Origin: an uncultured candidatus Porisulfidus sp.
GTDB taxonomy: Bacteria > Pseudomonadota > Gammaproteobacteria > Poriferisulfidales > Poriferisulfidaceae
Assembly: GCA_965204575.1 (NCBI GenBank)
Contig: OZ241993.1
Span: forward strand, 1,040,586-1,104,585
Direction of reading: 5' to 3'
Length of the DNA stretch: 64,000 nucleotides
Below the pieces are notes generated by a model. That model was given only the letters and a program-made list of their open reading frames with translations, made no database searches and had not been told where the DNA came from. Positions 23,437 through 56,722 of this stretch are shown piece by piece (positions within the stretch are counted from its first letter, which is position 1; the number at the start of each line of letters is the position of its first letter). Position numbers and translations under genes: made by a program.

Positions 23437-23446
23437 TGGAGTTGTC

Positions 23447-24190: not shown

Positions 24191-24195
24191 TTTTC

Positions 24196-26004: not shown

Positions 26005-27830
26005 GAGATTTTCGAGCCGAAGAGGGTGATGTGGTCGGGTTTTGTGTCCAACCGCTGGGGGCTGAGGATGATTTTTGACGCTTCGGCGCCCTGTCGCGCA
26101 GGGCTCCGCTCGCCGCTCAGGCGGCCCGTGCCAGGGTCGCAGCCGAACCGGTCGTCACGAAGTGTCGTAGGCCAGGAACCCGGCCATTCGGTCCAGCGCC
26201 TGCCGGACCCGCTGCACATGAGCCGTCTGGAACACCAGCCGCCGGTTGCGGGCATGCCGCACCACCTTGGCCACCAGGTGGACCCAGCACAGGCGCACCT
26301 GCTTCATCCGGGTCCACAGCCAGTCGCGTCCGAACGCGGCATGCCGCAGCAGCGCGTTGACGTTGGCCGACAGCACCGCCAGCTGCCACCAGGCGGCGTT
26401 CGCCCCGAACTTCCCCGACGGCATCATGCCGCCGGCCAGGTCCTGCTTGAGCACGGCGTGCACCTCTTCGCCATGCCCGCAGCGCTCGTGCGCGAAGCGC
26501 ACCACCTCCGAGGCGGTCATCCCCAGGCCCGCCCCCTCCCCGGAGCGCCCCGGATACGGCAGGTTGGTCAGATAGACCCGGTAGCGGTACGCCGGACGCC
26601 CGGACCTCGCCGGCGTCTCGTCCGGGTTCACCCCCAACACGCCCGGCAAGACACGCCGGGTGCCGACATGGCGCAGCAGCTGCCCCCGGGACTGCCGCGC
26701 GCCCCACGGCGAGACATAATCCAGGTCGGCGCATTCCAGTTCCGGCTCCGAGGCCCGCACCGGCTCCCACCACTGCTCCGGCGTCGCCCCCACGGCCTCG
26801 CGTAGTTCTTCTCTCTGCGGCGCGCCGACCACGAAGCCGATCACGCCGAAGCGGCGCAATGCCGCCGGGCGCGAAGCCGGCACGTTGCAGAAGCGGATCA
26901 GCCGGTTCTGGCAACCCGCCCCGTCCGAACGCAGCCACACCCGCCGCACCTCCGGCGGCAGCCCCGACAGCACCCGCTGGAGCATCTCCAGGTTGCCCAC
27001 CGAGGCCGGCACGTTGCCGTCGCGGAACTGGCTCGCCAGCACCATGCCCAACTCCGGGCAGAACATCGACAGCGGCTGGTAGCCCCGCTCGCCCGGAACC
27101 TCGCCGGTCGAACTGCGGTAGGTCGGCTGCGCCTCGCGCTTGCCCGAGGCCAGCACCGTCGCATCCAGGTCCAGGGTCAACTCGTCCAGCCCCAGGCGCC
27201 GGATCAGGCCCCGCGCCAGCCGCCGGTTGACCGCCTCGACCAGTTGCAGGGCCGCCGCCGGCTCCGGCACCACCGCCGCGCCCTTCACGCGCGCCGCACC
27301 GGCCGCCGCATCATGGAAACGCCGCAGCCAGTCATGCACCGCATTGGCGGACGGGAAGGTGCGCCCGCGCCCCCCGCGGAAGCGCGCCGCCAGCCCCGCC
27401 GGCATCACCCCCAGAAGCTCCGGTTCGTAGTCGCGCACCAGTCGGCACAGGCTGCGGTCCGCCTCCAGCGCGTCCACGTCCGAGACCCGCTCGTGACCGA
27501 TCACGTTGAGCAGCAGCACGGTCAGCATCATCTGGCCGTCGCGCCAGCCCTGCGCCCCGGCCACCTGCACCGGAAGGGTCCGAAACGCCCCGCTGCGGCG
27601 CAGCAGCTCCAGCCACAGCACGGCCCCGCCACAGGCGCTGGTTCGGCTTAACTTGGGGTCGCCCCCAATGGCGACCAAAGGGGAAAAGTTCGACATATAA
27701 TGAGACTCCCGGTTGGTTGTTCCCGGTTCACCCAATGGGTGAAACTTTTGCACCACCGATTTTAACCGTTTCACTCGGTTAAATAAGCGCCAACCGGGAC
27801 CTCGCTCTCATTTAGCTCGGATATCGGGGT
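26005..27830 (-). mobile_element. IS1380-family insertion sequence (ends approximate)
   Basis: Contains the DDE transposase at 26155-27696. Terminal inverted repeats could not be defined confidently. Confidence 0.4.
26155..27696 (-). CDS. IS1380-family DDE transposase
   Basis: The C-terminal signature HAVLKQDLAGGMMPSGKFGANAAWWQLAVLSANVNALL fits the conserved H-x-K-x-LK...SGKF-AN-W...LA-N pattern of IS1380 transposases. An ATG at 27696 has a GGGAG SD; there is an upstream in-frame GTG at 27774. Confidence 0.7.
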   Translation of the reverse strand: MSNFSPLVAIGGDPKLSRTSACGGAVLWLELLRRSGAFRTLPVQVAGAQGWRDGQMMLTVLLLNVIGHERVSDVDALEADRSLCRLVRDYEPELLGVMPAGLAARFRGGRGRTFPSANAVHDWLRRFHDAAAGAARVKGAAVVPEPAAALQLVEAVNRRLARGLIRRLGLDELTLDLDATVLASGKREAQPTYRSSTGEVPGERGYQPLSMFCPELGMVLASQFRDGNVPASVGNLEMLQRVLSGLPPEVRRVWLRSDGAGCQNRLIRFCNVPASRPAALRRFGVIGFVVGAPQREELREAVGATPEQWWEPVRASEPELECADLDYVSPWGARQSRGQLLRHVGTRRVLPGVLGVNPDETPARSGRPAYRYRVYLTNLPYPGRSGEGAGLGMTASEVVRFAHERCGHGEEVHAVLKQDLAGGMMPSGKFGANAAWWQLAVLSANVNALLRHAAFGRDWLWTRMKQVRLCWVHLVAKVVRHARNRRLVFQTAHVQRVRQALDRMAGFLAYDTS

Positions 27831-27871
27831 TCTTTATTTCCTCCTATAATAAGTAAAGGAGGATTTTATAG

Positions 27872-28126
27872 ATGCCTTTAAACATCAAAAATATTGCTAC
27901 TCATGCGTTAGCAAAGAAAATCGCAACCTTAACTGGGGAGTCTATGACTAAGGTTGTCACAGAGGCTCTCCAGGAGAAATTGGTGCAAGTGGAAAAGGCA
28001 AAAGGCCGCGTTGGACTGGCGGAGGAACTTGATCGCATTGCCTTGCACTGTGCCAGTCTACCAAGGCGCGATGACAGAAGCCCCGACGAGATCATTGGTT
28101 ACGACGACCACGGGCTACCCCAGTGA
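27872..28126 (+). CDS. vapB: VapB-family antitoxin
   Basis: 84 aa. MPLNIKNIATHALAKKIATLTGESMTKVVTEALQEKL. Confidence 0.75.
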   Translation: MPLNIKNIATHALAKKIATLTGESMTKVVTEALQEKLVQVEKAKGRVGLAEELDRIALHCASLPRRDDRSPDEIIGYDDHGLPQ

Positions 28127-28544
28127 TCGCCATTGATGCGTCTGCTCTCATCGCGATTCTGAGCGATGAACCGGAACGAAGTGGTTTCAACAAACTGATC
28201 GAGTCGGAAGAATTTGCGTACATTAGTGCTGCCAGCCTACTTGAGACCCGTATAGTTCTGTTTTCTCGCTTTGGTGACGATGGAGTCTTGGCTTTGGATT
28301 CGTTCCTTCTGAAAAGTGGCATCACTGTTGTCGAGGTCTCTCCCCGCATGGGCGCATTGCATTTGAGGCATACCAGCGTTTTGGCAAAGGGACAGGCCAT
28401 GGCGCATCTCTAAATTACGGAGACTGTTTTTCGTATGCTTTGGCAAAATATCTGGATGCTCCACTTCTCTTTAAGGGCGATGACTTTTCCAAAACAGACA
28501 TTTTCTCGACGTTGGTCGATACAGGAGAAACAGGTCAGCACTGA
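28123..28544 (+). pseudogene. vapC: VapC PIN-domain toxin interrupted by a frameshift
   Basis: The N-terminal PIN region (MIAIDASALIAIL...) reads to about 28385. The conserved C-terminal part (IAFEAYQRFGKGTGHGASLNYGDCFSYALAKYLDAPLLFKGDDFSKTDI) continues in the -1 frame, up to the stop at 28544. Confidence 0.7.
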
Positions 28545-28703
28545 GCAAGTGACTGAAGATCAAATGTCTGCATTGATCCTTGTCGCATGTGGATTGTAAA
28601 ACTGCAAAACTGATGTCCAAGACAAATCACTGGTGTTGTACCTCAGAGTTGAACCTGGGTCTTATAAAATATCCCGGTATCGGATTCATACAGGAACGGT
28701 AAC

Positions 28704-29579
28704 ATGGGAAATACCGAGGAATGCTATAAAGTTTGCCGTGAGAATATATCGGAGGCAGGACTATGGGTAGTGAAGTCAGAATATTGCGTGGTCCGTGCTT
28801 TGAGATCTCCACGGTGGTCAAAAACTTCTCAGCGTGACGAATCATCTAGGCCAGGTGTTTACATTCTTGCTGATGGAGCTAAAGAAAAGATTTACATTGG
28901 TCAAACCGATACTCTTCAGAAGAGAATACGTACTCATAAAAATAATAGATTCGATTGGTGGGAAGAAATGTTGTGGATTACCCCGGATGGAAGCTACCGG
29001 TTCGGGACAGACCGTAGACGCTACGTGGAATCCAAGCTGATAAGCCAAGCCCGGAAGCAAGAGATCGAATTGAAAAATGATCAGTTTCCAGAACCACCTC
29101 AGCTAGACCTAGATGAGCAAAAAGACCTAGATGAAAAGGTTCTAAATCCCATTCTCCAGATATTTATTCCTTTGATGATGGGCTTCAATTTTGTGTTGCC
29201 ATCGCCCCAGAGAGATACTGAACCAGGTTGTACTGAGTTTGAAATTATTCCGCAACAAGAGAGCATCAAGGCCTTTGCGAAGATAGTTGGCGGCAAATGG
29301 ATTGTGCAAAAAGGTTCTCAAGCCCGCAAAGATTGGATGGGAGGTGCGAGAACGAAAGAGCTCATTAAGGGGGCATACCACAATCTGTATCAGTCTTTAA
29401 AGAAACAGGATATTCTTCGCGAATACGAGGAATTCTGTGTTTTCACCGAAGACCATGAATTTGATAGTCCTAGTGCGGCCGCATCTGTCATCTACGGACG
29501 ACAGGCCGCGGGTCCTCGCAATTGGAATGTGAGAGGCGAAGACAAAACCTACCGGGAATGGGAAAAAGAGAACCTATAA
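28704..29579 (+). CDS. GIY-YIG nuclease-domain protein with a C-terminal DUF4357 domain
   Basis: GVYIL...KIYIGQT...R...E gives the GIY-YIG core. The C-terminal [22 protein letters not shown] resembles DUF4357. Confidence 0.6.
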
Positions 29580-29587
29580 ATCCTCCA

Positions 29588-37941: not shown

Positions 37942-38819
37942 CCCGCTGCGGGTTCGTGGCACTTTGCGGCAAGCCGAACGTCGGCAAGTCGACGCTGTTC
38001 AACCGCCTGCTGGGGAAGCCGCTGTCTGCCGCCACCGGCAAGCCGCAGACCACCCGGCACAACATCAAGGGCATCCTGACCGAGCAGGGCAACCAGTTCG
38101 TTTTCGTGGACACGCCCGGCATCCACTCCGGGCGGGTCCGGGCGCTTTCGCAATTGCTCAACGCCAACGCCAGCGAAGCCATGGGTCAGGTGGACGTGGC
38201 GGTGATGGTGGTGGAGGTCGGGGTGTGGAACGCACGCGACGAAAAGGTGCTGGGCGAATTGCGCGACGCGAAGATCCCGGTCATGCTGTGCGCCAACAAG
38301 ATCGACCGCATGCCCGACCAGGCATTGATCCTGCCGTATTTTGCCCAGTTGGCCGAGCACGAGTTCCTTGAATACATCCCGGTCAGCGCGCGAACCGGGG
38401 AAGGTTGCACGGTTCTCAAGGAGAACCTGGCGAAGCACGTCCCGGAGCGGGAGCACCTGTTCGAGGCGGACGCGCTGACGGACCGGCATGAACGTTTCTT
38501 CGCGGAGGAGTTGATTCGGGAGCAGTTGCTGATCCAGCTGGACAAGGAGCTGCCCTACGTCATGCACGTCCAGGTGACCGGCTTCCAGAACCAGGAAGAG
38601 CGCGTGCACATCTCTGCGCAGATCCTGGTGGAACGGGAATCGCAGCGCAAGATCCTGCTTGGCAAAAACGGCACACGCATTGGTTCCATCGGGCGCGCGG
38701 CACGGCTGCGCATGGCCGGGCTCCTGGATCAGCCGGTGATCCTGAAGTTGCACGTCAAGGTGCAGCCGAACTGGCAGCGGGACCCAAACATCCTGGCCAG
38801 CTATCGCGGAGGCGTGTGA
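37929..38819 (+). CDS. era: GTPase Era
   Basis: G1 motif GKPNVGKSTL, G3 DTPG, G4 NKID, and a C-terminal KH domain. Confidence 0.9.
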   Translation: MDIVTRCGFVALCGKPNVGKSTLFNRLLGKPLSAATGKPQTTRHNIKGILTEQGNQFVFVDTPGIHSGRVRALSQLLNANASEAMGQVDVAVMVVEVGVWNARDEKVLGELRDAKIPVMLCANKIDRMPDQALILPYFAQLAEHEFLEYIPVSARTGEGCTVLKENLAKHVPEREHLFEADALTDRHERFFAEELIREQLLIQLDKELPYVMHVQVTGFQNQEERVHISAQILVERESQRKILLGKNGTRIGSIGRAARLRMAGLLDQPVILKLHVKVQPNWQRDPNILASYRGGV

Positions 38820-39514
38820 TGCGGCAGGACGAACTGGTCGCGGCGTATGTGATTCAGGCACGCCCTTGGCGCGAGACCAGCCTGCTGTACAAGGTGGTCG
38901 CACAGGACCATGGTCGGGTCAGCCTGATCCATCGCGGGGCACGCAACAACCGTCGCGACCGGCCGCTGCCGACATTGACCCCGGTACGGGTATCCTGGGG
39001 CGGGCGTGGCAGCTTGTACACCCTGCGCCACGCCGAGGTCGCCGGCCCGATGACAGTGAAAGACCCGAAGCGGCAAGTCTACGCCCTGTACGTCAACGAG
39101 ATTGTCAGCTACCTGCTGCCGGACGATCGCTATTCGGACGAGATCTATCCGCTGTACCACGAGGCACTGGCTCATCTGGACACGGTCGCGGATCCTGAAT
39201 TCGTGCTTCGCGGAATCGAGATGGACTTGCTGCACTTGGCCGGCCATCCGCTGCAACTGGATCGCACCGAGCAGGGGAAGGTCGAGCCGGGCCGGCAATA
39301 TCGTTATCACCCGGGGGCCGGTCCCACGGAACTTCCGGGGGAAAGCGGGGCGGACGGGATCAGCGGCCAGACCCTGCTGACTCTTCAGGCGCGGCAGGAA
39401 ATGGACGAGCAAACGCGGCGCGAGGCGCGCCGCCTGATGCGGCAGGTATTGGACTACTACATTGCCCCGCAGACGATTCGGTCGCGAGGCATCATGCAAG
39501 CACTGACGGGCTGA
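38816..39514 (+). CDS. recO: DNA repair protein RecO
   Basis: 232 aa. An N-terminal OB-fold region and a C-terminal helical domain, in the conserved position after era. Confidence 0.85.
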   Translation: MMRQDELVAAYVIQARPWRETSLLYKVVAQDHGRVSLIHRGARNNRRDRPLPTLTPVRVSWGGRGSLYTLRHAEVAGPMTVKDPKRQVYALYVNEIVSYLLPDDRYSDEIYPLYHEALAHLDTVADPEFVLRGIEMDLLHLAGHPLQLDRTEQGKVEPGRQYRYHPGAGPTELPGESGADGISGQTLLTLQARQEMDEQTRREARRLMRQVLDYYIAPQTIRSRGIMQALTG

Positions 39515-39526
39515 TTCCCGCGACCT
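39424..39526. repeat. Direct repeat copy 1 (recO 3' end); its partner is at 39912-40012
   Basis: About 100 bp at roughly 92% identity. It contains ...cgccgcctgatgcggcaggt(a/g)ttggactactacattgc.... Confidence 0.85.
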
Positions 39527-39662
39527 TAGGACAAACAGCACTGAAATTGAGTTTTCTAATAAATGGTAACGAGCGCAATAGGAATTGCGCTTCTAATGAG
39601 TTCGCCAATTGTGTTTTTTTGGGGACTGGCAGAACTTGTCAGTGTGCTCGAATCAATGAAGC

Positions 39663-39803
39663 AATCCCTTTCTTAGAAGGTCATGGAATTCGCTGATATT
39701 TTTTCTCACATTAGGATATTTTGTTATCTTCCACAGGAAAACACCAATAGAGAGTACCGCGACCCCAGCCACTACAACACTCATAGCGATGATGAAGTCA
39801 GGC
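39663..39803 (-). CDS. Small hydrophobic peptide (46 aa, single TM helix) inside the recO-duplication insert
   Basis: MPDFIIAMSVVVAGVAVLSIGVFLWKITKYPNVRKNISEFHDLLRKGLLH. It lies in an AT-rich segment bounded by the recO-end direct repeats and is too short for the ORF track. Confidence 0.35.
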
Positions 39804-39911
39804 ATCTTGTGCTCCCTTTAATACCAAGATTCAGTATAACAAACCAACCCTCCAAGATTGATTGCATAGGTTCATAAACATTTGAGAACAGCCGGCGGGT
39901 CGCGGTGAGAG

Positions 39912-40012
39912 TCGCGCCGCCTGATGCGGCAGGTGTTGGACTACTACATTGCTCCGCAGACGATTCGGTCGCGGGGCATCATGCAGGCGCTGACGGGTTG
40001 ATTCCTGCGATC
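39912..40012. repeat. Direct repeat copy 2 (displaced recO 3' end)
   Basis: See the repeat at 39424-39526. Confidence 0.85.
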
Positions 40013-40052
40013 CTCGATATGGCACCTGAGCCTCAGCGGCTCAAAGGAGGGG

Positions 40053-40925
40053 TCAAGGCAAGCAGTCTTCGGGTTCAGGCGGTTGCCCGCCGTCCCTACG
40101 CAAGATGCGCAACGCCGCCTCGATATCAGCCTCGGATGCACATGTAGCGAAGAACGAAGCCATTTTCATCGCGGATACCTTTTCGGCGACTGCCATGACG
40201 ACGAACTGGTTGATGCTCGTGCCTTCCTCTTTGCTGATCTCCGTGACCGCCGACTTTAGGGAAGCCGGTAGTCTCAGGGGATAGGTGCTGGCTGGCTTCT
40301 TCATGGCACGGTCGGGCTGTCGGTCGCGAGGTTCGAGTGGTTGGGGAATGCGTTGATTGTCGCGGCAGTACTGCCACAGGTAGGCATCGACTTGTTGCCG
40401 AGTGAGTCCATGCTCCCGGCTCAGAAACGTGACCATCTCTTCCACAGTTGCGGAACACGCGGCGGCGCATTGCTTCATCCAGGTGTCAGGCTTCTCCGTG
40501 TCTTCAAGGCCGATGGCCGTTGCCAAGTGTCGGTTCGTGGCAGGTCCCATATAGGGAAGTTCCGTAAGCACAACCCTGCCGTGCTTGCGCATCCGTTGCT
40601 TGAAAGCCTCCCATCCTTCCGCATGAATCAACTTGCATCCCTTGAGGAAAGCATCCGCCTTCCGCTGATGGCGGATCGGCAGCGTCTGGGCATCTATTGA
40701 CTCCATGGCCACGATCCTGCCCAGGTCGAGGTTGTGGAATTTCTTGACGATGGTGTCGAAGTGCTTCTCGACGACTGAGTTCCGAAAACCCGAGACATAG
40801 ATGACCCAGAGGTACACCTCAAGAAATCCCTTCAGGTCGAGATCGTCGAAAACCCTCGGCTCCCACGGGCTGCCAACATGTGCCTGTGCGGTTTCCAGCA
40901 TCCGTGTTGCCTTGTTCTTATCCAT
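40053..40925 (-). CDS. Fusion protein: Tag-like (3-methyladenine DNA glycosylase I-like, HhH) N-terminal domain plus HicB-like RHH C-terminal domain
   Basis: FLEVYLWVIYVSGFRNSVVEKHFDTIVKKFHNLDLGRIVAM parallels E. coli Tag (FEMICLEGQQAGLSWITVLKKRENYRACFHQFDPVKVAAM). The C-terminus YPLRLPASLKSAVTEISKEEGTSINQFVVMAVAEKV matches the HicB-like antitoxin motif. Confidence 0.55.
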   Translation of the reverse strand: MDKNKATRMLETAQAHVGSPWEPRVFDDLDLKGFLEVYLWVIYVSGFRNSVVEKHFDTIVKKFHNLDLGRIVAMESIDAQTLPIRHQRKADAFLKGCKLIHAEGWEAFKQRMRKHGRVVLTELPYMGPATNRHLATAIGLEDTEKPDTWMKQCAAACSATVEEMVTFLSREHGLTRQQVDAYLWQYCRDNQRIPQPLEPRDRQPDRAMKKPASTYPLRLPASLKSAVTEISKEEGTSINQFVVMAVAEKVSAMKMASFFATCASEADIEAALRILRRDGGQPPEPEDCLP

Positions 40926-41025
40926 TTGTCATTGCCGTTTGCGGGCGGTCCCAACGTGAATTATAAAGAAAGGTTGATGATTTTATTGGCAATCTATAAG
41001 ATGGTTTAAAATAAAAGAGATTCGC

Positions 41026-41945
41026 ATGGCACACAGGCAACCCGGGAAATCGTATCGTCAGGGCATCGCTCTGGCCCACCTGTTCGACACGTTCCCGAAC
41101 GAGAAAGCGGCGCAGGAATGGTTCGAAAGCGTGGTATGGGCGAAGGGACGCTACTGCCCACGCTGTGGCTCTACGAGCACCCACGAGGCCAAGCATGCGA
41201 AATGCCCATACCGTTGCCGCGATTGCGGAAAGTACTTCAGCGTGAAGACGGGAACCGCCATGGCATCGTCCAAAGTTTCTCTTCGCAAGTGGGCCATCGC
41301 CATATACATTGACGCGACCAGCCCGAAAGGCGTGTCTTCGCTCCAGTTGCACCGAGATATCGGTGTGTCGCAGCCCACGGCCTGGTTCATGTTGCACCGC
41401 ATCCGCGAAGGATTCACGGACAAGCGCGCATCTATGGATGGCTTGGCCGAAATTGATGAGATGCACATCGGCGGCAAGCGTAAGAATATGCCCAAGAGTA
41501 AGCGAAAGGAACGGTCAGGGCGGAGTGCAACCGGCAGGACTGCGGTCGTTGGCGTGAAGGATCGCCAGACGAGGAAAGCTCGTGCAAAAGTGGTGGCGGA
41601 CCCGGGTTTGGACACTCTCCATGAGTTTCATTCGTGATCACGTCGCTGATGACGCAAAGGTCTGTACGGACGATGCCGTTCGACTCTGAACCCGTGAAAC
41701 ATGGCATGGGAGAGTACGTGCGGGGCATGGCCTACACGAACGGGGTCGAGTCGCTCGGGCTCATGCTTGAGCGGGGCGATATCGGTATTGATCATCAAAT
41801 GATTGCAAAGCATCTTCACTGGTACGTCAGCGGATTCGCCGGTCGTCACGGGGTGCGCGAGCGGAACACGCTGGAGCAACTGCGGGATGTTGCCGCTAGA
41901 ATGGCCGGCAAGAGGTTGCCGTATTGCGAACGGGTTCGTTTCTGA
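41026..41945 (+). pseudogene. IS1595-family transposase, inactivated by at least two frameshifts
   Basis: An N-terminal Zn-ribbon (CPRCGSTSTHEAKHAKCPYRCRDCGKYF) and DDE region read to EFHS* at 41637. The segment IRDHVADDAKVCTDDA lies in another frame. A third frame carries GMGEYVRGMAYTNGVESLG...HLHWYVSGFAGRH. Confidence 0.75.
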
Positions 41946-41956
41946 CAGGGGAGTGA

Positions 41957-42898
41957 TTGGAGAGCGTCATGGGAAACCCGATTTATGGAGGTGCAACGCC
42001 TGAGCAGGTGGCACTTGAGATGCTTCGGCCATCCAAGTTCATTGAACCGCTTTATGATCTCGTGTTTGGGGACGCCTTTGATTGGCTGGAATCGGCGGAG
42101 CATGAATCGATTCACGCGGTCGTGACCGACCCGCCTTACGGGTTGATCGAATACAAACCTGAACAACTCCAGAAGCGCCGAGATGGCAATGGCGGGGTAT
42201 GGCGTCTGCCGCCTTCGTTTGATGGAAGCAAACGTCAGCCAGTTCCGCGCTTTACGGTCTTGACTGACAGGGACAAAGATGAAATGAGGGCATTTTTTGC
42301 CCGTTTGGCTGAAAGTCTCTACCCGGTCCTCGTTCCAGGGGCCCATGTCTTCATTGCTACCAACCCCCTTCTAGCCCATTTGGTCTTCGAACCGTTCCTT
42401 GCTGCAGGATATGAGAAACGAGGAACGCTGATTCGTGAAGTGCATACGCTGCGCGGCGGTGACCGTCCCAAAAATGCCCATAAGGAATTCCCTGATGTCA
42501 CGGTCATGCCAAGATCATGCTTTGAGCCATGGGAAATTTTCCGGCGTCCGCTTCAAGGACGCGTTCAAGACAATCTGCGAAAGTGGGGAACCGGCGGTCT
42601 TCGGCGTCTCTCTGCGGAGCAACCGTTCAAGGATTTAGTCAAATCGTGTCCAGCGAAGAGGAAGGAGCGGGAAATTGCCCCCCATCCTTCATTGAAACCG
42701 CAAGCGTTTCTTCGGCCGTTGGTGAGGTCCAGCCTTCCTCTTGGTAAAGGTACCATACTCGATCCATTTGCAGGGTCAGGGTCCACCCTTGCAGCGGCGA
42801 TGGCTTGCGGCATAGAGAGTGTGGGCATTGAACGTGACCCGGAATACCATCAAATGGCATTGGACGCCATTCCGGCGTTGGCGCGTTTGGAAGTCTGA
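41957..42898 (+). CDS. Beta-class DNA methyltransferase (N6-adenine or N4-cytosine)
   Basis: Motif IV TDPPYGL comes before motif I DPFAGSGSTLAAA, in the ParB-MTase/beta-class order. Confidence 0.85.
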   Translation: MESVMGNPIYGGATPEQVALEMLRPSKFIEPLYDLVFGDAFDWLESAEHESIHAVVTDPPYGLIEYKPEQLQKRRDGNGGVWRLPPSFDGSKRQPVPRFTVLTDRDKDEMRAFFARLAESLYPVLVPGAHVFIATNPLLAHLVFEPFLAAGYEKRGTLIREVHTLRGGDRPKNAHKEFPDVTVMPRSCFEPWEIFRRPLQGRVQDNLRKWGTGGLRRLSAEQPFKDLVKSCPAKRKEREIAPHPSLKPQAFLRPLVRSSLPLGKGTILDPFAGSGSTLAAAMACGIESVGIERDPEYHQMALDAIPALARLEV

Positions 42899-42900
42899 CC

Positions 42901-43500
42901 ATGTTCGACAATGATGTTCAATTGCCTCCCGGATTGGAGATTTCCGCGATCCAACGCTCTATCGAGTTTGTCGAAAAACAATTAAGTGAACGTGACTTCG
43001 TGGACCTCTATCTTGAACAGGCCAATATATTCAGCGCGTTAGTGGGCATGTTCGCAACCAAGGCGCTGGATCAAGTCAGCAACTATGAAAAGCATCGGCA
43101 TAGCCATACGGCTCAACAACGTTTTCCTGATTTGTGCCGCCGGGGAGCATCCTTCCCACTTAAACCCGAGGATTCACTGGAGAGCAAGGCCAGCAAACGG
43201 CCTTGGGCGATACAATCCCACTACGATCACGCCGGATGGTACATCATCTGGAGATATCTGGTCGACCTGACCAAGACCATCAAGGATGATGCGGCTTTGG
43301 TGATTTGGCGCGTTGATGTCGTCTATTTGACCAAAACCGATTGGAAGTACGAGGGTTCGTCGGCAGATATGAGTGGCGGAGGAAGAACGCATACTTTTGG
43401 TGTGCGAAAACCTGCCACGCGATTGCGGGGCTGTGCCGTCTACAAGCGCCCCGACATCGTCATTCGTGATGGCAAGCCTGTGCCCGTCAACCTTCCTTGA
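42901..43500 (+). CDS. Hypothetical protein, candidate restriction endonuclease partner of the methyltransferase
   Basis: 199 aa, immediately downstream (3-nt gap) of the MTase in a low-GC insertion. No family recognised. Confidence 0.4.
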   Translation: MFDNDVQLPPGLEISAIQRSIEFVEKQLSERDFVDLYLEQANIFSALVGMFATKALDQVSNYEKHRHSHTAQQRFPDLCRRGASFPLKPEDSLESKASKRPWAIQSHYDHAGWYIIWRYLVDLTKTIKDDAALVIWRVDVVYLTKTDWKYEGSSADMSGGGRTHTFGVRKPATRLRGCAVYKRPDIVIRDGKPVPVNLP

Positions 43501-43698
43501 TTCCCTATTCTTTAAGAACAGTCGTAAGCAGGCGCCAACTCCAGGCAGAGGAAAAGCAGCGAAAGCGAAGCTCTTGCTTCCGTATATCCCCTAGGAACCA
43601 AGTTCAAATATGCCTTGCAACTCTTGCGGAGTGTATGCAGGTATTCCCGGAAAGCCTTTAGTGGTAGAGTGTCCATAGCAAAAACTACTTTGTGTACC

Positions 43699-44421
43699 GT
43701 GAAGAATGTACGACTAGGCGTGAATATTGACCACATAGCGACCCTGCGCCAGCAGCGCCACACGGACTACCCGGACCTGGGCGAGGCGATCCGCCGAGTG
43801 GAAGCGGCCGGGGCGGACGGCATCACCCTGCACCTGCGCGAGGACCGGCGGCACATCCAGCTGGAGGACGTGGAACAGGCGCGCCGGGAAGTGAGTGGAA
43901 CCCTGAACCTGGAGATGGCCGCAACCGAGGAGATGCTGGACATTGCGGAACGCATCCGTCCGGATTACTGCTGCCTGGTGCCTGAGCGGCGCGAGGAACT
44001 CACCACTGAAGGCGGTCTGGACGTCGTGGCGGGCGAAGATCGGATCCGGGAGGCGTGCACCCGGCTGAAAGCGGCGGGCATTCAGGTTTCGCTGTTTGTC
44101 GAGCCGACGCACGAAGCGATGGATGCCGCGGTCGAACTGGGTGCGTCGATCGTGGAGTTGCACACCGGTCCCTACGCCAACGCGACGGAGCCGGAAGCCC
44201 ACGAGGCGGAGCTGGAACGGCTGGTTTCCACCACGCAGTATGCGCGGGAACGGCTGACGGTCAACGCCGGACACGGCTTGCATCGCGACAACGTGGGCCC
44301 GGTGGCTTCGATCCCGGGAATGAACGAACTTAATATCGGTCACGCCATCGTCTGCCGGGCGGTGATGGTGGGATTGGAAGGAGCCGTGCGCGAAGTGCGC
44401 GAAGCCATGGAGGCGTCATGA
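43699..44421 (+). CDS. pdxJ: Pyridoxine 5'-phosphate synthase
   Basis: [15 protein letters not shown]...[16 protein letters not shown]...NLEMA...VNAGHGL...ELNIGHAI is the PdxJ signature. GTG start assumed at 43699. Confidence 0.85.
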
Positions 44422-48422: not shown

Positions 48423-48612
48423 GAGAGAGGCCCGGCTGAAAGCATGGCGCGTATGTTAACAGGAAGGTCGCGAGAGGCGGGGGCGGGCGGGCCGGCGACC
48501 GATGATTTTTCACCGTTGCGGCCGGCGCGTCCGCCGCGCTTGGAGTGGCGCACACCCGCGCAGGGACAGCGGCACGGCATGTTGTATACTTAGGCGAAAC
48601 CACAATGGTAGC

Positions 48613-48631
48613 CCCCCCCCCCCCCCCCCCC
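48613..48631. repeat. Poly-C homopolymer tract (19 C) in the dapD/secB-like divergent intergenic region
   Basis: gccccccccccccccccccccctag, read directly from the sequence. Confidence 0.9.
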
Positions 48632-48862
48632 TAGAAAGAGTCTTCCCCCGCGCCTCCGCGGCGGGCATCGGGAACGTCCGCGGCACCGCCCCGCGCAGGG
48701 CTGGCCGCGCGAGACGGCGGTCGGGCACGTGGCGCGGCCATCGCCAGGCAGGGCGCGTTCTTTCATGCCGGCCTCAAGCGCCTGCCCAGACCGGGGTTTG
48801 ATAAAGAAAAAACTATTTGTTAAAATCCTGCCCATCATCGGGAAGTGGTATTTGCATCTTTA

Positions 48863-49285
48863 ATGGAACCTAACATCGTTATGCATGGCCGATACATACG
48901 GGATCTATCCTTCGAGAATTTCGGTGCGCCGGCCTTGCCGGGGGACGCCGCCCCCGTCTTCGACATCGACGTCGGGGTGGAGAGCAGGCGGGCCCGGGAC
49001 ATGCACGAGGTGATGCTGTTCGTCCAGGTCACCGCCCGGCGCGAGGAGCAGATCGCGTTCCTGATCGAGTTGAACTACGCCGGCCTGTTCCAGGTCCAGG
49101 ACCTGGACGAGCGGGAGACGCGGCGTTTCCTCCACACCGAGGCGCCGCGCATGCTGTTTCCGTTCGTCGACCGGATCTGCGCGGACGCGACCCGGGACGG
49201 CGGCCTGCCGCCGCTGGCCCTGACGACCCCGGACTTCGCCCTGCTGTACCGGGAACGCGAGGAGAAACCCGCCGCCATCGACTGA
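48863..49285 (+). CDS. secB: SecB-like export chaperone
   Basis: GRYIRDLSFEN..., HEVMLFVQVTARREEQIAFLIELNYAGLF and MLFPFVDRICADATRDGGLPPLALTTPDFALLY align with E. coli SecB. Confidence 0.7.
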   Translation: MEPNIVMHGRYIRDLSFENFGAPALPGDAAPVFDIDVGVESRRARDMHEVMLFVQVTARREEQIAFLIELNYAGLFQVQDLDERETRRFLHTEAPRMLFPFVDRICADATRDGGLPPLALTTPDFALLYREREEKPAAID

Positions 49286-49314
49286 CTACTGAGCCTGTGT
49301 GGAAGCTCAGCCAC

Positions 49315-50727
49315 ATGCAAGAATCCCCCCCCCCCCCCTCAAACCATAACCGGCCTGAACTAGGGCCCGGCGCGGCCCGCGCGCCGGTCCTGCGCCGTCG
49401 CCGTCGCGACGGGTGGCTGCCGCCGGAGAAACGCCGTGCGCGTTCCAGGACGCGGGTGCGCCGGCAGGTGGCGGTCAACGTGCTGGGGGTGTGCTCCATG
49501 CTTTCGCACTCGGTGGCGCCGTACCTGGCGGCGGTCGCCGCGAAAAGCACCACCGCGGTCGGCGCGGTCGGCACGTTCGCCGCCCTGGCGCCCGACGAGG
49601 CGGCGGCGCAAAACCCGGGCCCGGCGGGAGCCAAGGGCGACAAGGGCGACAAGGGCCAGGTGGGCATTCCTGGACGACCGGGCGACAAGGGCGAGGAGAT
49701 GGGCGCACCCCCCGGTGAGAAGGGCGCAACAGGCGTAAAGGGCTCGCCCGGCGGAGAAGGTCAGAAGGGCGATCAGGGACGGCCGGGCAATCGAGGCAGC
49801 CGAGGCATACCGGGCGAAGAGGGGGCGAAGGGCGTGCTGGGATTCAAAGGCCTTCCGGGAGGCGCTGGCGATCAGGGCTCGAAGGGCCCGAGGGGCGATC
49901 CAGGTCCGCAGGGCTCGGCGGGTGTCAAGGGCGATACGGGCCAGAAGGGCGACCCGAAGGCGATCGGTGCCAAGGGCGATACAGGCGAGGCGGGCGCACC
50001 GGGTGCACCGGGCACGCCGGGCGCGCAGGGTTCGCAGGGCGCACAGGGCGCACAGGGCGCGCCGGGCGCACCGGGCGCATCGGGCACGCCGGGCGCCAAA
50101 GGGGAGGCAGGCGCGGGCGGCTTCGATTTTTCCGAGCAGGGGAAGGCGCGGGTCCGGGAGAAGGCCCGGGCCCTGCGGGAATCGGAGAACCCGGCCGACC
50201 AGCGGATCGGTCGGCTGCTGGAAGGCATCCTGGACGAGCTGGCGCCGGCCGCGGGGGGACAGCTGCAGTCGCTGCAGTCCGCCGGCGGGCGGGCGCTGCA
50301 GACCGAGGAGCCGGCGAGTGACAGCCTGACCCTGCTGCGGTATGCCTCCCGCTCCGACACGCCCCGGGCGGAGCAGGCCGGGGCGCTGATGGGCAGCATC
50401 TTCCTGAACCAGCGGGACATCGCCGAGAATCGCCAGAACATCGAGAAGAACCGGCAGGACATCGCCGGGCTGCGGGACGAGGACTACAGGCTGCGCAACC
50501 GCTCGCGCGAGGGGACCGCCCTGGCCATCGCGCTCGGCGGCATCCACTTCCCGCTGGACAAGGACCGGTCCGTCTCGCTGCGCTTCGGGCGCTTCGAGGG
50601 CGAGGAGGCGCTGGCGCTGGGCGCGTCCTTCCGCCTGCGGGAGAACTGGCAGATCGATTTTGGCATGGGCCGGGGGCTGAGCTACCGGCAGAACGGCTAT
50701 TCCGCCGGGCTGAGCTACAGCCGGTAG
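49315..50727 (+). CDS. Collagen-like trimeric autotransporter adhesin, paralog 1: Gly-X-Y repeat stalk, coiled coil, YadA-like C-terminal anchor
   Basis: About 56 Gly-X-Y triplets ([21 protein letters not shown]...), with Lys and Pro frequent in the Y position. The C-terminus [69 protein letters not shown] matches the YadA anchor pattern. The start is uncertain: ATG 49315 reads through the poly-C tract, and ATG 49498 is a conservative internal alternative. Confidence 0.65.
49325..49338. repeat. Poly-C homopolymer tract (14 C) at the 5' end of the first collagen-like adhesin gene
   Basis: aatcccccccccccccctc. It is in frame, encoding SPPPPS, if translation starts at ATG 49315. Confidence 0.9.
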
Positions 50728-50764
50728 GCGGCCCCTGAGACTGAACCACGAGGAGGTGAGGAAG

Positions 50765-52189
50765 ATGAGCAGCGAGGAGAAGAGGCGGCCGGATTCGGAA
50801 GACGGGCTTCCGCCCGAGTCGAGGGAGGCCGCGGGGCGCGCGCCGGTCCTGCGCCGTCGCCGTCGCGACGGGTGGCTGCCGCCGGAGAAGCGCCGTGCGC
50901 GCTCCGGGACGCGGGTGCGCCGGCAGGTGGCGGTCAACGTGCTGGGGGTGTGCTCCATGCTTTCGCACTCGGTGGCGCCGTACCTGACGGCGGTCGCCGC
51001 GAAAAGCACGACCGCGGTCGGCGCGGTCGGCACGTTCGCCGCCCTGGCGCCCGACAAGGCGGCGGCGCAGGACCCGGGCCCGCCGGGCCAGAAGGGCGAA
51101 AAGGGCGACGCGGGCGTACAGGGCGCGCCGGGTTCGCAGGGCGCGCCGGGTGGCGAAAAGGGCGGCCGGGGCGACATGGGCCAGAAGGGCGAGCCGGGTG
51201 ATCCGGGCGCCACGGGCGAGAAGGGTTCGCAGGGCTCACCCGGCAGGCGTGGCATCACCGGCAACAAGGGCGAGGAGGGTGATCCGGGCGCGACAGGTAG
51301 TCAGGGTCAGAAGGGCGTTTTCGGCGAGCCGGGTGATCCGGGTCCGCAGGGCGCGGCAGGTGATCCGGGTCAGAAGGGCGCGATGGGTCAGAAGGGCGAG
51401 GCCGGCGGCCCGCCGGGCCAGAAGGGCCAAAAGGGGACAGCCGGCACAGCCGGCCCGTCGGGCGCCGCCGGTGCGCCGGGCGCAGCCGGTGCGCCGGGCG
51501 CCGCCGGTGCGCCGGGCGCTGCCGGTGCATCGGGCGCCGCCGGTGCGCCGGGCGAGAAAGGCGATGCGGGCGCGGGCGGCCTTGACTTCTCCGAGGAGGG
51601 GAAGGCGCGGATCCGGACCACGGCCCAGATCCTGCAGAAATCGGAGAATCCCGCCGACCGGCAGATCGGGGAGCTGCTCGAGGAGGTCCTGGACGAACTG
51701 GCGCCGGCCGCCGAGGGACAGCTGCAGTCGCTGCAGTCGGCCGGCGGGCAGGCGCTGCAGGCCGGGGAGGAGCCGACGGGCGACAGCCTGGCCCTGCTGC
51801 GCTACGCCGCCCGCTCCGACGTCACCGGGGCGGAGCAGGCCGGGGCGCTGGTGGGCAGCGTGCTCCTGAACCAGCGGGACATCGCCGAGAATCGCCAGAA
51901 CATCGAGAAGAACCGGCAGGACATCGCCGGGCTGCGGCACCAGTACCGCGACCTGCGCGACCGCTCGCGCGAGGGGACCGCCCTGGCCATCGCGCTCGGC
52001 GGCCTGCGCGTCCCGGTGGCCCGGGACTGGGCCGTGTCGCTGCGCTTCGGGCGCTTCGAGGGCGAGGAGGCGGTCGCGCTGGGCGCGGCCTTCCGCCTGA
52101 AGGAGGGCTGGCAGGTCGATTTCGCGCTGGGCCAGGGCCTGAGTTACTCGCAGAACGGCTATGCCGGTGGCGTGAGCTACAGCTGGTAG
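50765..52189 (+). CDS. Collagen-like trimeric autotransporter adhesin, paralog 2
   Basis: A strong SD (AGGAGG) sits 8 nt upstream of ATG 50765. There is an Arg-rich N-terminal extension, a conserved hydrophobic leader, about 50 Gly-X-Y triplets, and a YadA-like anchor ending ...GVSYSW. Confidence 0.8.
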
Positions 52190-52199
52190 CCCGGTCGCG

Positions 52200-52832
52200 A
52201 TGGCGGTGCGGCGGCGGGCGGCGGAGGCGGCGATGCGGCACTTGCTGACGTACGAGGGGGCACGGGCGGACGGCTGCTGGCGGGAGGTCGCCCCGGACAT
52301 CCTGACCTTCCCGTTCTGGACCCCGGACTTCTGCGAGGAACTGGTGGCGGTGTCCGAGCTGCTCGACGAGTTCCGCCCGTACGCCCCCGACGTGGAGGGC
52401 AACGCCGCGCCGGGGCAGGAACTGCGGATCAACCGGATCAGCCCGCGCTTCGCGGAACAGTTCGAGACGCATTTCCAGGAGCGCGCGGCGCCGATCCTCC
52501 GCGTGCACTGGTGGCCGCTGAACCTGGGCAAGACGCGCATGCCCTTCGTGCTGCGCTACTCCGCCGACACGCAGGCCTCCCTCGACCCGCACCACGACGC
52601 CGCCATGGTGAGCCTGGCGATGCCGCTCAACGCCGGCTACGAGGGCGGGCACCTGACCTTCCCGCGCCAGCACTGGGACAGCCGCGAGGTCGAGGTCGGG
52701 CACGTGATCGCCTTTCCGAGCCGGGTCACCCACGTGCACTGGGTCACGCCGGTGACCTCCGGGACCCGCTACGCGATGACCTGCTGGCTGTCCGACCCGA
52801 ACGCCCAGCCCGACGATGCCATTCTCGCGTGA
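52200..52832 (+). CDS. 2OG-Fe(II) oxygenase homologous to the catalytic domain of procollagen lysyl hydroxylase (PLOD/LH)
   Basis: LDPHHDAAMVSLAMPLNAGYEGGHLTF...HVIAFPSRVTHVHWVTPVTSGTRYAMTCWLSDP parallels the human PLOD C-terminus ([29 protein letters not shown]...GTRYIMVSFVDP). HxD...H iron triad. Confidence 0.8.
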   Translation: MAVRRRAAEAAMRHLLTYEGARADGCWREVAPDILTFPFWTPDFCEELVAVSELLDEFRPYAPDVEGNAAPGQELRINRISPRFAEQFETHFQERAAPILRVHWWPLNLGKTRMPFVLRYSADTQASLDPHHDAAMVSLAMPLNAGYEGGHLTFPRQHWDSREVEVGHVIAFPSRVTHVHWVTPVTSGTRYAMTCWLSDPNAQPDDAILA

Positions 52833-54267
52833 GGAGCCGGCGGACGTCCCCGCCGTCCTTGTCGTCCACCTCGCGCGCCACCGGGAACGCCGCCGCCGCC
52901 TGTCCGCCCTGCTGAAGCGGCACGGGTTCGCGCACGTGAACTGGCTCGACGCGGTGGACGGCCGGGAGCTGGACCCCGCGCCGCCGTGGCGGGGCGCCGG
53001 CCTGCCGCCGGCCAACGCCTGGCCGAACTGGGCGGATCCGTACGCCCGCCGCGCCCTGACCCTGGGCGAGGTTGCCTGTACCCTGTCGCACGTGGCCGCC
53101 TGGCGGCGCATCGCGGACGAGGGCTACCCCGCCATCGTGCTGGAGGACGATGCGCTCCCGGTGGAGCCGCTGATCCGGGACCTGCCGGACCTGCTGGCGG
53201 ACCTCGATCACTTCGACTTCGACCTGTGCTACCTCGCCCAGCGCAACGCGCCGGGGCCGAAGGCGCTGATGGGCCGGCACGTGCACCTGGTCGACTACCA
53301 CCCGGTGTGGACGCTGGCCTACCTGCTGGCGCCGTCCGGCGCGGAGAAGCTGCTCGCCAGCCCCTGGCAGAGCCGGCTGGTCCCGGCCGACGAACTCCTG
53401 CCCGCCGCGTTCGGCCGGAACCGGGACCCGGAGATCAACCGGGCCTACGTCGGCGACGGCGGCATGGTGCTGTCCAGCAACCAGCGCTTCTTCACCCCGG
53501 CCGAGGGTTCGGAGAGCAGCGAGACCGAGAAGAGCCGGCCGGTGCGGGAGCCGGAATGCGGCCTGACGGGCCTGACCGTGGCGACCGAACGCCGCCCGGA
53601 ACTGCAGCGCCTGCAGGAGTCCGGCCTGCGCTACGGCCTGGAGATCGAGGCCCTGGGGCTGGGCCAGCCCTGGCGCGGCGGCGAGATGTCCGAGGGCACC
53701 GGCGGGGGACAGAAGATCAACCTGCTGCGCCCCGCCCTGCAGCGGCTGCCGCCGGAGCGGCCGGTGCTGTTCGTGGACGGCTACGACACCCTGATCTCCG
53801 GGCATGTCTCGGACATCCTGGGCGCCTGGCGGCAGACCTGCGACGGCCCGCTGTTCGCCGCCGAGGTCTACTGCTGGCCGGATCGCGACCGGGCCGACGA
53901 CTACCCTTCCGCGGCGACCCCCTACCGCTTCCTGAACTCCGGCGCCTTCATCGGCAAGGCCGGGGACCTGCTGCGCATCCTGGACGGGAAGATCGACGAC
54001 CGCGCGGACGACCAGCGCTACTACACCGAGCGCTTCCTGTCCGGCCGGCACGGCATGACGCTGGACACCGAGTGCCGGGTCTTCCAGTGCCTCAACGGCG
54101 CCCTGGACGACGTGCGGGCGGACGAGGGGCGGGGCATGCTGTTCAACCGGCGCACCGAGAACTGGCCGGCGGTGATCCACGCGAACGGCCCAAGCAAGGA
54201 GTGGCTGGAGAAGGACGGCCGGCCCGTGGGCGGCCGCTGGCGCCGCTACTACGGGGAGATGATTTGA
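52816..54267 (+). CDS. Bifunctional glycosyltransferase: N-terminal GT25 (collagen galactosyltransferase/LgtB-like) domain fused to a PLOD/LH3-type glycosyltransferase domain
   Basis: GT25 motifs VLVVHLARHRERR, LTLGEVACTLSHVAAWRRI and IVLEDD. The C-terminal half (LTVATE..LGLGQPWRGG..GGGQK..LFVDGYDTLISG..CWPD..YRFLNSGAFIG..YYTERFL..VFQCLNGALDDV..IHANGPSK) is colinear with the N-terminal GT domain of human lysyl hydroxylases. Confidence 0.8.
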   Translation: MPFSREEPADVPAVLVVHLARHRERRRRLSALLKRHGFAHVNWLDAVDGRELDPAPPWRGAGLPPANAWPNWADPYARRALTLGEVACTLSHVAAWRRIADEGYPAIVLEDDALPVEPLIRDLPDLLADLDHFDFDLCYLAQRNAPGPKALMGRHVHLVDYHPVWTLAYLLAPSGAEKLLASPWQSRLVPADELLPAAFGRNRDPEINRAYVGDGGMVLSSNQRFFTPAEGSESSETEKSRPVREPECGLTGLTVATERRPELQRLQESGLRYGLEIEALGLGQPWRGGEMSEGTGGGQKINLLRPALQRLPPERPVLFVDGYDTLISGHVSDILGAWRQTCDGPLFAAEVYCWPDRDRADDYPSAATPYRFLNSGAFIGKAGDLLRILDGKIDDRADDQRYYTERFLSGRHGMTLDTECRVFQCLNGALDDVRADEGRGMLFNRRTENWPAVIHANGPSKEWLEKDGRPVGGRWRRYYGEMI

Positions 54268-54286
54268 ATCTCTGGTTGAGGTAACG

Positions 54287-54709
54287 ATGAGCAAAAGAAT
54301 TTCAGCACTGGTCATCCTTGTCGCGCTGTCCCTGCCGCTGACCGCGCAGGCGCACGACAACCTCTTCAATCCGGGGCACCAGCACGGGCTTGAGGTCGAT
54401 GCCATTTCCGAGCGCAACAGAGGGTCTTTCTGCATCGTGTTCAAGGAATCTTCGGTCGAGTGTCCAGAGAAGTACAACAGCCTCAGAGGGTGCGCGTACA
54501 AGTGCCTGTACCGGGTATGGGCGGACTGGTCGGACGACCGGGGGAGTGGCCGCGAGGTCGATCATAACTGGAGCCGCTGCCATATTGCAGGCAGTCACAA
54601 CCCGGCGCTTGCGGCGGCGGAAGTCCGCATCACCAAGCCGCACTGGGCGACCGGGGCCTGGGGCGCGTATGTCCGCGCCGGGGATGACGGAGAAAAGATC
54701 GTGAGGTGA
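54287..54709 (+). CDS. Small secreted Cys-containing protein (signal peptide)
   Basis: MSKRISALVILVALSLPLTAQA signal peptide; 7 Cys residues; low-GC segment. Confidence 0.5.
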   Translation: MSKRISALVILVALSLPLTAQAHDNLFNPGHQHGLEVDAISERNRGSFCIVFKESSVECPEKYNSLRGCAYKCLYRVWADWSDDRGSGREVDHNWSRCHIAGSHNPALAAAEVRITKPHWATGAWGAYVRAGDDGEKIVR

Positions 54710-54737
54710 GACTGATGAACCCAAACAGGAGAAAATC

Positions 54738-55031
54738 ATGAAGAAAACCATACCCGCGCTGATCCTGATGCTGGCCTTGTCCCCGGCATACGGATTGGCA
54801 CCTAAACCCCGACCCCTTGTGGACATCTGCAAGGATCACTTCGAAAGAAGTTCCGCCTACCAGAGTTGCACCGATATTCAATATGCGGATGTCGGCGGCG
54901 GCTACTGCAAGGTCATGGCGTGGTGCCGCTCGGTAAATGAAACGCTATCTTCCACGTCCAAGAGGACAAAGCCGTCGGAGGCCGACGAACTGTACAACTG
55001 TCAGGGCCAGTTGACGATCAAGGTTTGCTGA
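54738..55031 (+). CDS. Small secreted Cys-rich protein (signal peptide)
   Basis: MKKTIPALILMLALSPAYGLA signal peptide, an SD (AGGAGA) upstream, and 8 Cys residues. Confidence 0.5.
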   Translation: MKKTIPALILMLALSPAYGLAPKPRPLVDICKDHFERSSAYQSCTDIQYADVGGGYCKVMAWCRSVNETLSSTSKRTKPSEADELYNCQGQLTIKVC

Positions 55032-55083
55032 TGGCCGGAGCAACGAGGCTAATCGTGAGCGGCGTGTTCGCCTGACCTGGGCC

Positions 55084-56055: not shown

Positions 56056-56207
56056 AACCGGCTTCCCGTCGCCGGGACCAGGCGAAGGCCGCGCCCGTGT
56101 GACCGGGGTCCGTATCCGGGCAGGGCCACGTCTTCGGGCGTGTAATGGCGCAGGAACGGCTTGCCGGGCGTGCCGCGGCGGTTGTCGAGCCTGCCGCTCT
56201 CGCGGCA

Positions 56208-56450: not shown

Positions 56451-56722
56451 CCTTCGGATGATCCCGCAGCCCTTCAGGCTCCTGTCTCGTTGGAAATGGT
56501 ATGAAGGCCGCCTTGGTTTTGGCGGGCGGATCATCAGGAGAGAGAGGCGAACCCTCCAGCCTGGTTGCTGGAAACCGATATTGTCCACCTGGGGCACTTT
56601 AGATGCCGTACCGGACTGCTGGAGGGTTCGCCTCCTCATCCGATCAGATCCAGGCCGGGCGGCCTTTATAATGGCAATCCACAAATGACGGGCTTCGGAA
56701 GCATCGGAGCATCGGCCAAACA

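Follow-up and report, generated by a model that had tools for sequence, protein, structure and literature searches.

Integrase-free chromosomal hotspots located between conserved core genes are a general concept of pangenome biology. A documented class of events (Nobusato et al. 2000; Furuta, Abe & Kobayashi 2010, PMC2853133) is the insertion with long target duplication, which was first noticed around restriction-modification (RM) genes and is characterized by direct repeats of 46-423 bp, often overlapping the 3' end of a gene, and by the lack of mobility genes (PMC2853133). Assignment to this class is based on a direct repeat of more than 30 bp that is single-copy in an insert-free genome, an insert of less than 20 kb, and the presence of both the restriction (R) and the modification (M) gene inside the insert (PMC2853133). 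The present analysis is concerned with the spacer between recO and pdxJ in a stretch of 64,000 nucleotides (the window) of contig OZ241993.1 from an uncultured 'Candidatus Porisulfidus' sp. ('Ca. Porisulfidus'), a sulfur-oxidising sponge symbiont. The two genes are 4.2 kb apart in the window, and an earlier note on this DNA had interpreted the intervening island as one accessory insertion marked by a duplicated recO 3' end. We consider it likely that the spacer is an integrase-free hotspot that was filled in layers by at least three events, the last of which would have been an insertion with long target duplication.

The gene order pheT-ihfA-merR-tRNA-Pro-lepB-rnc-era-recO...pdxJ-cysM is found in the window as well as in its relatives. 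In base composition the spacer differs from its surroundings as the earlier note had stated, with a G+C content of 0.41-0.55 versus 0.66 in the flanks (0.414 in the 374 bp between the repeats, 0.549 in the other 3.6 kb, and 0.657 in the flanks). The features of the site are, from left to right:
38816..39514, plus strand, intact recO (Pfam RecO_N and RecO_C, TIGR00613), the final ~100 nt of which form repeat copy 1
39414..39526, plus strand, repeat copy 1, made up of recO's functional 3' end and 12 nt past the stop codon
39527..39900, minus strand, A+T-rich insert of 374 bp (374-377; G+C 0.41), containing TM50 and a fragment of a neighbouring open reading frame (ORF) only
39653..39805, minus strand, TM50, an intact gene for a 50-aa single-helix membrane peptide, with a GGGAG ribosome-binding site and an extended -10-like TGTTATACT
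39863..39894, no strand assigned, a 32-nt motif (GCATAGGTTCATAAACATNTGAGAACA...) at the right edge of the insert
39901..40013, plus strand, repeat copy 2, a recO 3' end out of place and without function, with an in-frame stop at its 5' edge
40053..40925, minus strand, p290, a DNA-glycosylase-like domain of the helix-hairpin-helix (HhH) type (residues ~1-195) fused to a ribbon-helix-helix (RHH) domain (~205-275), belonging to the older layer of the island
41026..41945, plus strand, pseudogene of an IS1595-family transposase, whose frame shifts at least twice, near 41632 and 41672
41969..42898, plus strand, beta-class DNA methyltransferase of 313 aa (Pfam N6_N4_Mtase, PF01555, E 6e-18; PADLOC MTase_II, E 8.5e-111)
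42901..43500, plus strand, p199, a protein of 199 aa with a PD...ESK motif (P76-D77 and E94-S95-K96, invariant)
43640..43698, plus strand, conserved pdxJ leader of about 60 nt, delimited by alignment, with an extended -10-like TGGTAGAGT; present in every strain, with or without insert
43699..44421 (start about 43699), plus strand, intact pdxJ (Pfam PdxJ, E 2e-94; also NCBIfam)

The composite nature of the island is evident from the states of the site among relatives. Nine close relatives (L001-L009) were obtained when species-representative genomes were scanned with RecO. All of them are sponge-associated metagenome-assembled genomes (MAGs) of Chromatiales / 'Ca. Porisulfidus', and their RecO proteins are 84-97% identical to that of the window; with strain-level contigs from several sponge metagenome projects they make up a comparison set of about 20 related contigs. 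In six of the nine species-level relatives (L003, L004, L005, L007, L008, and L009) recO is directly followed by pdxJ at a distance of about 90-170 bp, which bears out the accessory nature of the DNA that separates the two genes in the window. The other three (L001, L002, and L006) possess p290 on the minus strand between recO and pdxJ, without any duplication, and this p290-only state recurs in three further contigs (L033, L034, and L035). Four independent strain contigs (L011, L013, L015, and L017) show the arrangement recO-p290-IS1595-methyltransferase-p199-pdxJ with a single recO end and without TM50; their transposase is broken in like manner to that of the window. The innermost 487-bp unit, which is all that the duplicated recO end flanks, is confined to the window among the related contigs. 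Because the empty, the p290-only, and the p290-IS-RM state all occur in relatives, the spacer is a hotspot that is polymorphic and known in at least four states.

The duplicated recO end, consequently, does not delimit a 4.2-kb insertion, nor did the island arrive in one recent step, since p290 alone and the full block without duplication both occur elsewhere. The earlier note had conceded that relatives sharing the insertion would make it an ancient, fixed feature; most of the DNA is indeed shared, but the site is polymorphic and not fixed. Thus, the island is neither specific to the window nor simply ancient and fixed. That genes are also lost from the site is seen in L005, where 57 nt of the p290 5' end (L005:10715-10771) persist as a remnant within the otherwise empty spacer, from which a loss of p290 by deletion is concluded for this strain.

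Core identity to the window is 95-97% for L011, L013, and L017, and 82-91% for L015. In the comparison of the window with L015, the latter range is that of lepB-era, recO, pdxJ, and cysM, whereas p290, the insertion sequence (IS), the methyltransferase gene, and p199 are 94-97% identical; in the comparison of L015 with L011, the tract of high identity begins within the 3' part of p290 and ends about 30 nt beyond p199. Since the island is thus more similar than the core, the block has moved horizontally between diverged lineages, and into the same spacer. An extra gene of 80 aa with a weak DUF2730 match lies between p199 and pdxJ in L015 (L015:8791-9033), as a further layer in the same hotspot.

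No integrase or recombinase ORF is present in the 39.4-43.7 kb interval, as judged from the ORFs of the window and their Pfam and NCBIfam domains, and the gene calls at the recO-pdxJ site of the island-bearing relatives (L011, L013, L015, L017, and L033-L035) include neither a tyrosine nor a serine recombinase. The IS1595-family transposase of the island was rightly described as decayed: its Zn-ribbon and the first part of its DDE domain are encoded in 41026-41637 and the remainder of the DDE domain in 41634-41945. The first of these ORFs is 203 aa long in the window, L011, L013, and L017; the second is 114 aa long in the three strains versus 103 aa, from a later start codon, in the window, and the L015 copy has an additional deletion. 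Neither terminal inverted repeats nor a target-site duplication was found around 40.9-42.0 kb or between 40.9-41.04 and 43.48-43.7 kb. A transporter IS, in which the IS1595 element and the RM genes would form one unit, was considered and discarded for want of terminal inverted repeats.

The direct repeat itself comprises 110 nt (39414-39523 versus 39901-40010) at 91% identity and extends to about 113 nt with 12 differences, which is close to the ~100 bp and 92% reported earlier. No other repeat of this kind exists within the 64-kb window, and a chance match is excluded on this ground. The repeat target is single-copy in L001-L009, L011, L013, L015, and L017. Copy 2 continues straight into the native recO-p290 spacer, which is of the L013 allele type.

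Between the two copies lies DNA whose origin can be traced. Positions 39527-39855 are 91-93% identical to DNA of L020-L025 at another hotspot, which lies between prmC and a gene for a dienelactone hydrolase (DLH), upstream of gatCAB, where all eight related copies of TM50 reside. In comparison to L021 and L024, the insert has suffered an internal deletion of 188 nt at a CCATT microhomology, and its left end cuts into an ORF that encodes 129 aa in L024. With such arbitrary ends, one of them inside an ORF, and an internal deletion, the insert is a fragment of another island and not a discrete element. For positions 39856-39900 no related copy was found apart from the 32-nt motif at 39863-39894, which recurs at a contig end in L001 (L001:20665-20696), at a different variable spot; the window and the fetched loci contain no further copy besides that one, and a metagenome scan gave two chance hits only, on unrelated low-G+C contigs. 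The earlier description of the segment between the repeats as AT-rich and encoding a transmembrane peptide is correct in kind; the segment is 374-377 bp and not 385 bp long, and the intact single-helix ORF has 50 and not 46 codons for amino acids.

TM50 is known from eight related alleles, in which the helix substitutions are conservative and the last 22 residues do not vary at all, although their codons have undergone four synonymous changes; on these grounds it is regarded as a real gene under selection. Its relatives fall into one cluster only, 92% identical, and no remote homologue outside this cluster was found among 1.8 billion representatives; it is an orphan family limited to the 'Ca. 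Porisulfidus' symbiont group. At prmC-DLH the conserved TM50 cassette begins at the -10 element, and the DNA upstream of it differs in each strain. The neighbours there encode OLD-like ATPases, helix-turn-helix (HTH) regulators, and BrnT/BrnA; in L020 (L020:3657-7341), AAA_15/DUF4435 (OLD-like) and AAA_21 ATPase genes accompany BrnT/BrnA, on account of which the prmC-DLH hotspot is viewed as a defence and toxin-antitoxin island. In one strain, a phage-type integrase gene adjoins this hotspot (L031:7373-8356). The 3' region of TM50 (39527-39660, minus strand) is predicted to fold at -32.9 kcal/mol (z = -3.8 versus shuffled sequences) with a hairpin AGCGCAAU/AUUGCGCU, and could serve as a terminator or a regulatory RNA element.

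From these observations, the following scenario is proposed for the recO-pdxJ spacer as an integrase-free gene-exchange hotspot of the 'Ca. Porisulfidus' pangenome, in which the 4.2 kb would be the sum of at least three separate events. In the first and older one, p290 would have been acquired; this layer is now polymorphic and has been deleted again in some strains. In the second, a block of 2.7 kb with the IS1595-family transposase and the type II RM pair would have been inserted between p290 and the pdxJ leader; the transposase is inactivated by frameshifts in every copy seen. Afterwards, the p290-IS-RM block has been exchanged between diverged lineages, always at the recO-pdxJ site. The third and latest event, restricted to the genome of the window, would have placed the 374-bp fragment with a promoter and TM50 at 12 nt past the recO stop codon, with a concomitant duplication of about 110 nt of the target, namely the 3' end of recO. 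The data establish that the site is layered and polymorphic, where the fragment came from, and that no integrase is present; the manner of joining is a proposal. The fragment, linear or circularised, might have been joined, illegitimately or by recombination, at two positions about 110 nt apart, for instance on sister chromosomes. Subsequently, copy 1 would have remained the working recO end while copy 2 would decay. This in-situ insertion is preferred because it needs no recO-TM50 allele that has not been observed.

Several points weigh against this scenario. The repeat copies differ by about 9%, from which it follows that an in-situ duplication must date back about as far as the divergence from the closest strains sampled. 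RM genes lie inside the repeats in the published class and outside of them in the window. The 487-bp unit was found in no strain other than the source genome. Neither terminal inverted repeats nor a target-site duplication tie the RM genes to the IS, and the nuclease fold of p199 is weakly supported. A further point resides in the distribution of the 12 differences between the copies. Three of them fall within the first 12 nt of copy 2, where they create the stop codon, six are interior, and three lie past the stop; the interior ones are all synonymous third-position transitions, and four of the six are at sites that also vary among strains, as would be expected of two recO alleles.

Accordingly, the strongest competitor is an allelic accretion, in which the two recO ends would stem from different strains and two hotspot arrangements of co-resident strains would have been joined in tandem, one of them (recO-TM50... 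or recO-p290-IS-RM-pdxJ) having been brought in by foreign DNA, either by homology-facilitated illegitimate recombination (one homologous crossover combined with one illegitimate joint) or by a Campbell-type single crossover of a small circle carrying a recO 3' end. Besides the interior differences, it would account for the fact that the copies are as distant from each other as each is from the L013 allele, and for the crowding of the three non-synonymous differences into copy 2's first 12 nt, such as a junction would produce; horizontal exchange of the island between lineages is, moreover, demonstrated. The synonymous nature of the interior differences was at one stage taken as proof of two alleles; it is not decisive once the changes are assigned to lineages by means of outgroups, upon which only two of the interior changes prove to be specific to copy 2. 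These two, together with the three at the edge, fit neutral decay after an in-situ duplication. Both copies are, furthermore, of the same allele type over the first 11 nt past the stop codon. A donor or recipient strain with TM50 beside recO would be required, and none is seen among the related contigs, the eight TM50 loci all being at prmC-DLH. On balance, we regard an accretion of two alleles as unlikely, albeit deserving to be taken seriously.

A farther-reaching variant would treat the recO 3' end and the pdxJ leader as a dedicated docking site that works independently of a recombinase, with small cassettes that bring their own promoter, such as TM50 and the p290-IS-RM block, shuttling between co-resident strains; the repeat would in that case be what a Campbell-type or a one-sided homologous capture, and not a staggered break, left behind. 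We deem this rather improbable. If it were true, TM50 would constitute a new minimal mobile module that travels from hotspot to hotspot and is composed of a promoter and a membrane peptide of 50 aa, which might be a toxin.

Still less probable is the remnant of a site-specific integrative element, either a non-autonomous one resembling a cis-mobilizable element (CIME) or a decayed island, that targeted the recO 3' end, with the repeats as attL and attR and an integrase that was lost or acted in trans. Such elements are classically recognized by direct repeats, not quite identical, through which the target gene regains its 3' end, and the phage-type integrase beside the other TM50 hotspot in L031 would be in line with this view. 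However, the island lacks an integrase in the window and in the relatives carrying it, the ends of the insert are arbitrary and its interior is deleted, as set out above, the TM50 loci at prmC-DLH are devoid of flanking gene-end repeats, and no other recO-targeted element was seen in the relatives. Finally, a false tandem duplication of the recO end through serial concatenation of two strain variants of the hotspot during assembly, which a MAG from a multi-strain population, the occurrence of the structure in one assembly, and a copy divergence typical of strains might suggest, is very improbable, given that the 487-bp unit lies within a 1.8-Mb contig and should be spanned by single reads, that the supposed recO-TM50 variant was seen in no other sample, and that no simple overlap is seen at the junction, 39895-39913.

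Regarding the cargo, the methyltransferase displays DPPY at residues 58-61 and FAGSGS near residues 271-276, in the order of the beta class; its PDB relatives include the CcrM, RsrI, and MboIIA methylases, and its product is probably N6-methyladenine. For p199, more than 2,784 homologues exist, with no match in Pfam, PADLOC, PDB sequences, or plasmid or phage collections. In Foldseek searches, its best matches are the restriction endonucleases SfiI and BglI, which are weak (E 0.02-0.2, probability about 0.4), with residues 63-80 of the model being of low confidence. In other phyla (L026-L030, including a Phycisphaerales MAG), homologues of p199 always directly follow, within unrelated gene neighbourhoods, an orthologous gene for a methyltransferase that is 66-67% identical to that of the window. 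Both genes are under purifying selection, with ratios of synonymous to nonsynonymous changes of 16:4, 18:1, 19:7, and 21:2 for the methyltransferase and 6:2, 7:3, 16:6, and 6:3 for p199. Because of the linkage conserved across phyla and the purifying selection, they are interpreted as a functional pair: p199 is probably the endonuclease partner of a type II RM system, whose restriction activity is presumed. The pairing of a methyltransferase with a candidate endonuclease, as put forward in the earlier note, is thereby strengthened, also by the invariant PD...ESK motif.

Concerning p290, its former designation as a Tag-like/HicB-like fusion is a fair description of an HhH-glycosylase (OGG/Tag/EndoIII-like) N-domain joined to an RHH (Arc/CopG/HicB-like) C-domain. 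The N-domain of 195 residues is recognized by the PADLOC OGG model (E 1.5e-27), which we take to represent an OGG-like accessory gene of type IV cyclic-oligonucleotide-based anti-phage signalling systems (CBASS). Its HhH motif reads LPYMGPAT (P124, G127), and D147, situated 20 residues past the hairpin glycine, is invariant in 23 aligned homologues. The N-domain is confidently modelled, and its best Foldseek matches are Tag, EndoIII, MutY, and AlkA, none with E<=0.001 (best E 0.078); a profile search against the PDB gave a weak Tag match, and there is no significant Pfam match for p290. For the C-domain, Foldseek listed Arc, CopG, and AmrZ, none significant, next to Arc-like and HicB-like PHROGs and a sub-threshold Pfam HicB match. 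The protein evolves faster than the methyltransferase and p199. Among the homologues P0018-P0088, standalone versions of 195 aa, 60-72% identical to the N-domain (40338-40925), occur in sponge-associated Rhodobacteraceae, Acidobacteria, and Bryobacterales MAGs, which suggests that genes of this glycosylase-like type have spread across phyla within sponge microbiomes. Some further homologues match the RHH tail only and carry PIN domains.

The earlier note had asserted that pdxJ is detached from the operon promoter, which may be the case. The IS, the methyltransferase gene, and p199 are co-oriented with pdxJ, and no terminator-like site was found between p199 and pdxJ. A sigma-70 promoter and terminator scan revealed no promoter-like site, and terminator-like sites were no more frequent than by chance. 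From its letters alone, TGGTAGAGT of the leader may be a promoter. Escherichia coli pdxJ also has an internal promoter. The pdxJ gene, for which the profile match begins at residue 33 of a longer ORF, would be served by its own conserved leader, by read-through from the co-oriented island genes, or by both.

Outside of the recO-pdxJ site, the window contains other variable regions. A block of 8.5 kb (21072-29586; G+C 0.57) without counterpart in L001-L006 carries two HipA/HTH (HipBA-like) modules, a DDE transposase, and a GIY-YIG/DUF4357 protein. A second block, of 9.8 kb and with a genome-like G+C content of 0.685 (48466-58219), is missing from L001, L002, L005, and L011 and is partial and inverted in L015 and L017, with gene calls for epimerases and glycosyltransferases; it looks like a variable polysaccharide-type region. 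A small variable stretch at 61631-63110 includes an AbiEi/DUF6088-like gene (61784-62380) and a PIN-domain gene (62644-63087), and directly after position 63071 all strains compared diverge.

Summarizing, with the recO-pdxJ island an uncultured sponge symbiont supplies a further example of known phenomena, and current understanding is not overturned by it. Its value lies in a well-resolved natural case of a core-gene hotspot that is filled layer by layer without an integrase, and in a block of RM and glycosylase genes that moves between lineages about 15% apart in their core genes. To the long target duplications it would add a case in which the inserted piece is traceable to another hotspot of the same pangenome. 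In addition, it draws attention to two uncharacterised families, namely p199, always accompanied by one methyltransferase family, and the OGG-like glycosylase found across sponge-associated phyla.

In comparison with known systems, p290 shares the HhH motif and the spaced Asp with HhH glycosylases (Tag, EndoIII/Nth, OGG/AGOG) and with glycosylase-type defence proteins, and its predicted fold is all-helical; it differs from HhH glycosylases in being fused to an RHH domain, in escaping the Pfam models, and in its weak fold E-values. The methyltransferase-p199 pair corresponds to type II RM systems with a beta-class N6/N4 methyltransferase (RsrI, MboII, CcrM-type) in its DPPY/FxGxG motifs and in the linked downstream PD-ExK partner, although the putative endonuclease family is without a sequence match in Pfam, PADLOC, or the PDB. 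TM50 was also compared with type I toxin-antitoxin systems, which consist of a small hydrophobic toxin and an overlapping antisense RNA antitoxin; the peptide is of small size, contains a single transmembrane helix, and evolves under selection, its 3' region is predicted to fold stably (z = -3.8), and no RNA family of Rfam matched in a scan of 39.0-44.2 kb. CIMEs and other integrative elements at gene 3' ends have in common with the window the imperfect direct repeats, one of which rebuilds the recO 3' end, but the latter shows no recombinase, no constant ends, and no such repeats at the other genomic locations of the insert. With the long target duplications it shares the long repeat, the single-copy target, the overlap with a gene 3' end, the absence of a mobility gene, and an RM-bearing locus; the repeat of the 487-bp unit is longer than 30 bp and the insert is smaller than 20 kb, with R and M outside of it. 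Unlike in the published cases, the inserted DNA is a fragment of 374 bp that encodes a small peptide, and the repeats are 91% versus 93-100% identical (PMC2853133). With integrase-free hotspots, finally, the recO-pdxJ site has the alternative occupants, the island more similar than its flanks, and the defence and addiction cargo in common, and nothing essential sets it apart from them.

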